From NCBI RefSeq assembly GCF_013122565.1, contig NZ_CP053258.1: 64,000 nt of DNA, one strand, 5' to 3'. A program made the translations under genes and the position numbers. Shown one piece after another: positions 62,745 through 62,808 of this stretch; positions within the stretch are counted from its first letter, which is position 1; each line of letters starts with the position of its first letter. The notes under the pieces are model-generated. The model did not search any database and had not been told where the DNA came from. It was given only the letters and a program-made list of their open reading frames with translations. The stretch is from Escherichia coli (GTDB taxonomy: Bacteria; Pseudomonadota; Gammaproteobacteria; Enterobacterales; Enterobacteriaceae).

Positions 62745-62808
62745 CTTCCGATGTAGACCCGTATTCTTCGCCTGTACCACGGGTCGGTTTTAGTACAGGC
62801 GTTTTCTT
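62745..62808 (+). ncRNA. rydC: RydC small regulatory RNA (Hfq-dependent)
   Basis: cttccgatgtagacccgtattcttcgcctgtaccacgggtcggttttagtacaggcgttttctt in the ydcA/cybB gap matches RydC as I recall it; ends in a hairpin (cgcctgtac / gtacaggcg) and U-run. Confidence 0.6.

Follow-up and report, generated by a model that had tools for sequence, protein, structure and literature searches.

The segment of the window running from 62745 to 62808 on the plus strand is almost certainly rydC, which in E. coli encodes RydC, a small RNA that acts in trans and depends on Hfq; by the window we mean the whole stretch of DNA that was analysed, 64,000 nt in length. The sequence of this segment is CTTCCGATGTAGACCCGTATTCTTCGCCTGTACCACGGGTCGGTTTTAGTACAGGCGTTTTCTT. 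With the gathering thresholds of Rfam 15, a scan of the entire window returned three matches, one of which is to the RydC model (RF00505). It spans 62745-62808 on the plus strand and covers model positions 1-64 of 64, scoring 92.5 bits where the gathering score is 48 (E = 5.2e-17). The segment is also identical, at 64/64 nt, to rydC of K-12 MG1655 (b4597), whose annotation comprises 65 nt and is longer by one T (T62809). An earlier note, made from the letters alone, had named RydC at this very place, in the gap between ydcA and cybB, and had listed the lack of a Rfam match and a mismatch to rydC as counter-evidence. Neither was found when the two comparisons were made: coordinates and strand are exact, and the order and orientation of cybB, rydC and ydcA are those of K-12. 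The note's placement was exact to the base, which makes it a useful calibration point, and rydC can confidently be added to the annotation of the window.

RydC has been known since 2005, and its co-crystal structure with Hfq, its targets (cfa, yejABEF, csgD, trpE and pheA) and its repressor, YieP, have all been described. The RNA in the window is the textbook small RNA, already known, and there is nothing new in the RNA itself. We add three minor points: the published YieP motif lies on the spacer of the rydC promoter and is kept across genera; a common polymorphism in this putative operator separates K-12 from most E. coli; and RydC variants that preserve the structure occur within E. coli.

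The gene order in K-12 MG1655 is aldA, gapC (a pseudogene), cybB, rydC, ydcA, yncP, hokB/mokB/sokB and trg, and the window presents it in reverse orientation. In K-12 rydC is annotated as an ncRNA on the strand opposite to both cybB and ydcA. The same holds in the window, where ydcA is divergent from rydC and 170 nt upstream of it, and cybB is convergent with rydC and 10 nt downstream (Table 1). The gap between ydcA and cybB measures 244 nt and contains two substitutions relative to K-12, G62683 (C in K-12) and G62720 (A in K-12), both of which lie upstream of the RNA. The window and K-12 share the RNA, the locus, the pseudoknot, the seed, the -10 box and the position of the putative YieP operator, and they differ only in these upstream substitutions.

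Table 1. Features of the rydC locus and its surroundings, in window coordinates; nt numbers count from the first nucleotide of RydC.
Feature	Position	Strand	Basis or remark
rydC gene, RydC sRNA of 64-65 nt, +1 = 62745	62745..62809	+	Rfam RF00505; identity to K-12 b4597
Palindrome ATTTGTCATACAAAT (-29..-15), putative operator for YieP (GntR family) over the promoter spacer	62716..62730	.	motif match
-10 hexamer TATAAT (-11..-6), no recognisable -35	62734..62739	+	read from sequence
5' seed, single-stranded, nt 1-11, CUUCCGAUGUA	62745..62755	+	unpaired in Rfam consensus and in MFE fold
Pseudoknot stem 1, 5' strand, nt 12-18, GACCCGU	62756..62762	+	Rfam consensus helix
Conserved UU, nt 23-24, loop 1	62767..62768	+	alignment columns T23, T24
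Pseudoknot stem 2, 5' strand, nt 25-33, CGCCUGUAC	62769..62777	+	pairs with nt 49-57
Pseudoknot stem 1, 3' strand, nt 35-41, ACGGGUC	62779..62785	+	inside the stem-2 loop
Conserved UU, nt 45-46, loop 3	62789..62790	+	alignment columns T45, T46
Pseudoknot stem 2, 3' strand, nt 49-57, GUACAGGCG, doubling as putative terminator stem	62793..62801	+	
3' U-rich tail UUUUCUU(U), putative terminator tail and site for the proximal face of Hfq (literature)	62802..62809	+	read from sequence
hokB/sokB	about 62034-62330		window neighbourhood of rydC
ydcA	62401-62574	-	
cybB	62819-63349	-	
gapC start	63539	+	

At an identity of at least 95%, a stretch of 1.2 kb around rydC is matched in 5416 of the 5426 complete E. 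coli genomes, and we conclude from this that the window is E. coli chromosome. The RydC 64-mer itself is present as a single copy in 5415 of the 5426 genomes, and it is identical over all 64 nt in 4063 of them. Five of the 5415 matches are in plasmid-labelled records, and the locus is missing from about 10 complete genomes. Most RefSeq/PGAP records of E. coli carry no feature under rydC, so that outside K-12 the gene usually goes unannotated.

In order to compare RydC between species, we scanned the species-representative genomes once with a 16-base pattern from the RydC 5' end, which returned 65 loci. The pattern fixed nt 1-17, and homologues of the Klebsiella or Enterobacter type, with another 5' end, would be missed by it. 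Judged on the 47 nt downstream of the pattern, 11 of the 65 loci are true homologues, found in Escherichia clades, five Citrobacter species and two Salmonella subspecies. The remaining loci, in unrelated phyla, match by chance and were dropped. The alignment is a small one, of ten full-length sequences, nine of them distinct, with a mean column identity of 84%. RydC nt 1-18 are invariant in these ten sequences from three genera, although for nt 1-17 this invariance is partly a consequence of how the retrieval pattern was constructed. The two UU dinucleotides at nt 23-24 and nt 45-46 are likewise invariant columns, and single-base indels separate the species elsewhere in the RNA, loops included.

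The RydC of Salmonella and Citrobacter resembles that of the window in the 5' 18 nt, in stem 1, in the UU dinucleotides, in having cybB on its 3' side, and in the upstream TATAAT (TATACT in C. koseri) and YieP palindrome. It differs in four compensatory pairs of stem 2, in loop indels, and in its 5' neighbour, which is not ydcA. The convergent cybB on the 3' side was found in all ten homologous loci that reach that far, in Escherichia, Citrobacter and Salmonella alike. This arrangement agrees with Bianco et al. (bioRxiv 10.1101/2024.02.12.579971), ydcA being the 5' neighbour in E. coli and Shigella. In Citrobacter koseri, the cybB beside rydC (L045, 8765-9295) is recovered by tblastn in three pieces lying in different frames, and this copy is probably a pseudogene.

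We used the alignment to count base pairs for the published H-type pseudoknot, in which nt 11/12-18 pair with nt 35-41/42 and nt 25-33 pair with nt 49-57. Standard pairs occupy 99.3% of the pseudoknot cells; shifting the partners by 1-3 columns lowers this to 26-44%. The signal of covariation is in stem 2, where four of the nine pairs show double-sided changes (G-C to A-U, U-A to C-G, A-U to G-C and C-G to U-A) and where pairing is kept in 100% of cases and never broken. Stem 1, by comparison, does not vary between genera, except that A11 faces G42, a non-standard pair, in the E. coli allele of the window and forms an A-U pair in the RydC of Salmonella and Citrobacter. Since stem 1 is otherwise invariant between genera, the comparison of genera alone says nothing for or against its pairing. 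Within E. coli, however, there are variants that do bear on it: A13G occurs in WL297, SCU-111 and ECE170 (L069-L071), and A35G, U20C and C22U occur in WL297. Here A13G and A35G turn an A-U and a U-A pair of stem 1 into G.U and U.G, and pairing is kept, while the other variants fall in loop 1. The seed is unchanged in all the E. coli variants examined. In our data the support for stem 1 comes solely from these G.U/U.G variants and from the Rfam model. Taken over both stems, the homologues support the published H-type pseudoknot.

As stand-alone helices both stems are stable, with a predicted energy of -10.5 kcal/mol for stem 1 and of -13.8 kcal/mol for stem 2. As the loop of stem 2 contains the 3' strand of stem 1, only a pseudoknot allows both stems to form together. 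A nested minimum free energy fold (ViennaRNA, which does not allow pseudoknots) forms stem 2 only, pairing nt 25-33 with nt 49-57, and its energy is unremarkable: z = -0.69, with 43 of 200 shuffled sequences folding as well. Because the energy of the nested fold alone is not unusual, the structural evidence is one of covariation rather than of thermodynamics. The terminal hairpin and U-run that the earlier note had pointed out are indeed present, as stem 2 followed by UUUUCUU(U), and this hairpin is one half of the full structure. The crystal structure of Hfq with RydC confirms the pseudoknot; in it, the proximal groove of Hfq accommodates the U-tail, and two loops each contact the Hfq rim through a conserved UU pair (PMC4337610). 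We matched these UU pairs to ours by alignment position; the Salmonella numbering differs by about 1. A simple terminator scan makes no call at the RydC 3' end, because the loop of stem 2 is 15 nt long. The same scan proposes a 6-bp hairpin at 62770-62784, which we disregarded, as it mixes strands of both stems.

Upstream of the RNA, the perfect -10 hexamer TATAAT is present in 10 of the 11 homologous loci, the exception being the TATACT of C. koseri. A scan with the consensus promoter found no two-hexamer promoter for rydC, as expected of a promoter without a -35 box; we recognised the -10 box from the letters themselves and from its conservation. The rydC promoter has been described likewise, with a -10 and without a -35 element, by Bianco et al. 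(bioRxiv 10.1101/2024.02.12.579971).

The reverse complement of the palindrome over the promoter spacer, ATTTGTATGACAAAT, equals the published YieP ChIP-exo motif atTTGTaTGAcaAAT at 15/15 positions when read on the minus strand. It is the sole match to that motif in the window at up to 2 mismatches. The chance expectation for that search is 0.28, and the argument for an operator therefore rests on the exactness of the match, on its position and on its conservation. The palindrome is conserved in 11 of 11 homologous loci, and the sequence further upstream diverges. In the C. koseri palindrome the central triplet is inverted, reading ATG instead of CAT.

The motif was reported by Nguyen-Vo et al., who list both rydC and ydcA among the YieP targets in their ChIP-exo and RNA-seq data (PMC7642389). 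According to Bianco et al., one published YieP ChIP-exo regulon does not include rydC (bioRxiv 10.1101/2024.02.12.579971). The same authors report a repression of rydC by YieP that amounts to 20-fold in E. coli and to 7.5-fold in Salmonella, with control of cfa via RydC; the 20-fold value is the derepression of a rydC'-lacZ fusion in a K-12 yieP deletion. Their preprint names neither a YieP binding site nor a motif over the promoter spacer (bioRxiv 10.1101/2024.02.12.579971). From the motif match, we infer that YieP most likely binds the palindrome at 62716-62730, and a YieP dimer placed there would overlap the footprint of RNA polymerase.

One of the two substitutions relative to K-12 falls within this putative operator. 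G at 62720, as in the window, makes the palindrome perfect; A, as in K-12, reduces the match to the YieP motif to 14/15, with the mismatch at a position of low information. The 44-nt promoter/operator allele of the window is shared by 3870 of the 5415 E. coli genomes, compared to 1236 for the K-12 allele. At position 62720 itself, G accounts for about 71% of E. coli genomes and A for about 23%, and G is also found in Salmonella and in most Citrobacter. It is conceivable, though we consider it rather unlikely, that this A/G polymorphism alters how tightly rydC is repressed. If it did, lineages would differ in basal RydC, and hence in how much cyclopropane fatty acid they contain and how well they tolerate acid and membrane stress; the RNA would still be ordinary RydC.

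The presence of a substitution inside the putative YieP operator also raises the question of whether the segment could be RydC by sequence and yet a silent or decaying copy, on account of G62683 and G62720. We give this very little weight: the 44-nt allele of the window is the majority form in E. coli, the G within it perfects the palindrome and is the base seen in Salmonella and most Citrobacter, and both the -10 box and the RNA are intact. A similarly slight chance attaches to the idea that the hairpin and U-run are the terminator of a neighbour, for example a bidirectional one serving cybB, and that the rest is a non-functional leftover. The arrangement of the genes does place a hairpin where a cybB terminator would be expected, given that the two genes converge and that the cybB stop codon lies 10 nt from the RydC 3' end. 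On the minus strand, however, transcription of cybB would meet AAGAAUAC after the hairpin, which contains no U-run, and the terminator scan finds no minus-strand site there. Moreover, a mere terminator leaves unexplained the invariant 5' 18 nt, the TATAAT and operator, the conservation of stem 1 and the full-length Rfam match. As part of rydC, the hairpin may nonetheless have a secondary role in stopping read-through from cybB.

A conserved gap might equally encode a small protein, and there is indeed an ORF of 53 aa with an ATG start (62687..62848, plus strand) that spans the RNA. This ORF exists mechanically, but its frame is interrupted by in-frame stops or frameshifts in 10 of 10 homologous loci from other Escherichia, Citrobacter and Salmonella, and indels of a single base occur in the aligned RNA region. 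With such indels and stops between species, coding by the overlapping ORF is excluded. Conservation, furthermore, does not follow the ORF: it starts sharply at the promoter/operator and peaks in the 5' 18 nt of the RNA. No CDS is annotated there in K-12 or in RefSeq. Of the three alternatives to rydC this is the one to which we give the least credence, practically none, and the statement of the earlier note that no ORF accounts for the gap holds.

The free 5' end of RydC serves as the seed for pairing with its targets (PMC4337610). With RNAduplex, we predict that RydC nt 2-11 pair with positions -108..-98 of the K-12 cfa leader at -12.6 kcal/mol, a value reached by 7 of 500 shuffled leaders. 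An exact reverse complement of the seed, of at least 7 nt, is absent from the K-12 cfa leader; the predicted pairing includes G.U pairs and is found by RNAduplex only. The predicted duplex is consistent with the published site and with activation of cfa. In the literature, a RydC transcript of ~64 nt and its regulation of targets have been published for both K-12 and Salmonella. RydC is described as pairing with the long cfa mRNA isoform, stabilising it and countering Rho-dependent termination, so that more cyclopropane fatty acid synthase is made; yejABEF, csgD, trpE and pheA are described as repressed.

These elements suggest the following mode of action, in which Hfq binding and target regulation are drawn from the literature, the occupancy of the exact site by YieP is drawn from the literature or deduced, and our own analysis supplies the identity and location of the gene, its conservation, the covariation of the pseudoknot, the sequence elements of promoter and operator, and the complementarity of the seed to cfa. 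YieP would normally keep the rydC promoter shut, most likely from the palindrome at 62716-62730, which overlaps the spacer. Once made, the transcript of 64-65 nt would fold into the H-type pseudoknot, with stem 2 and the U-tail doubling as an intrinsic terminator, and this fold would leave the first ~11 nt single-stranded. According to the literature, the 3' U-tail would be held by the proximal face of Hfq and the two UU dinucleotides by its rim. The free seed would then pair with the long isoform of cfa mRNA, the main target, about 100 nt upstream of the start codon, and this pairing would shield the mRNA against both RNase E and Rho-dependent termination, thereby raising cyclopropane fatty acid synthase. 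Pairing by RydC would also repress yejABEF, csgD, trpE and pheA.

Other small RNAs act on the same leader. ArrS, CpxQ, GadF and OmrB are, like RydC, Hfq-dependent small RNAs that base-pair with the cfa mRNA leader (literature). They are unrelated to RydC in sequence, and RydC is unusual among them in its pseudoknot and in the location of its seed at the extreme 5' end.

Several observations concern the surroundings of rydC. Over window positions 62809-62821, a mere 10 nt separate the 3' end of RydC from the stop codon of cybB on the opposite strand, and consequently any read-through from cybB would be antisense to RydC. On the other side of the gene, beyond ydcA, the hokB/mokB/sokB type I toxin-antitoxin locus occupies window positions 62034-62330, with a Rfam match to sok (109.7 bits) at 62034-62185 and a HokB ORF of 49 aa at 62180..62329; in reference genomes a small ORF, yncP, is annotated on the opposite strand. 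The gapC gene begins at 63539 on the plus strand and is present as far as 64000, where the window ends inside it. A record that is 100% identical over 63539-64000, NZ_OZ197100.1, has gapC annotated as an intact 1002-nt gene for a type I glyceraldehyde-3-phosphate dehydrogenase, in contrast to the pseudogene of K-12. Much farther from rydC, at 8301-8359 on the minus strand, the window contains a match to the Rfam selenocysteine insertion element SECIS_3 (84.3 bits; gathering score 63), which, judged by its distance to rydC, is presumably located within fdnG, the gene for formate dehydrogenase-N.
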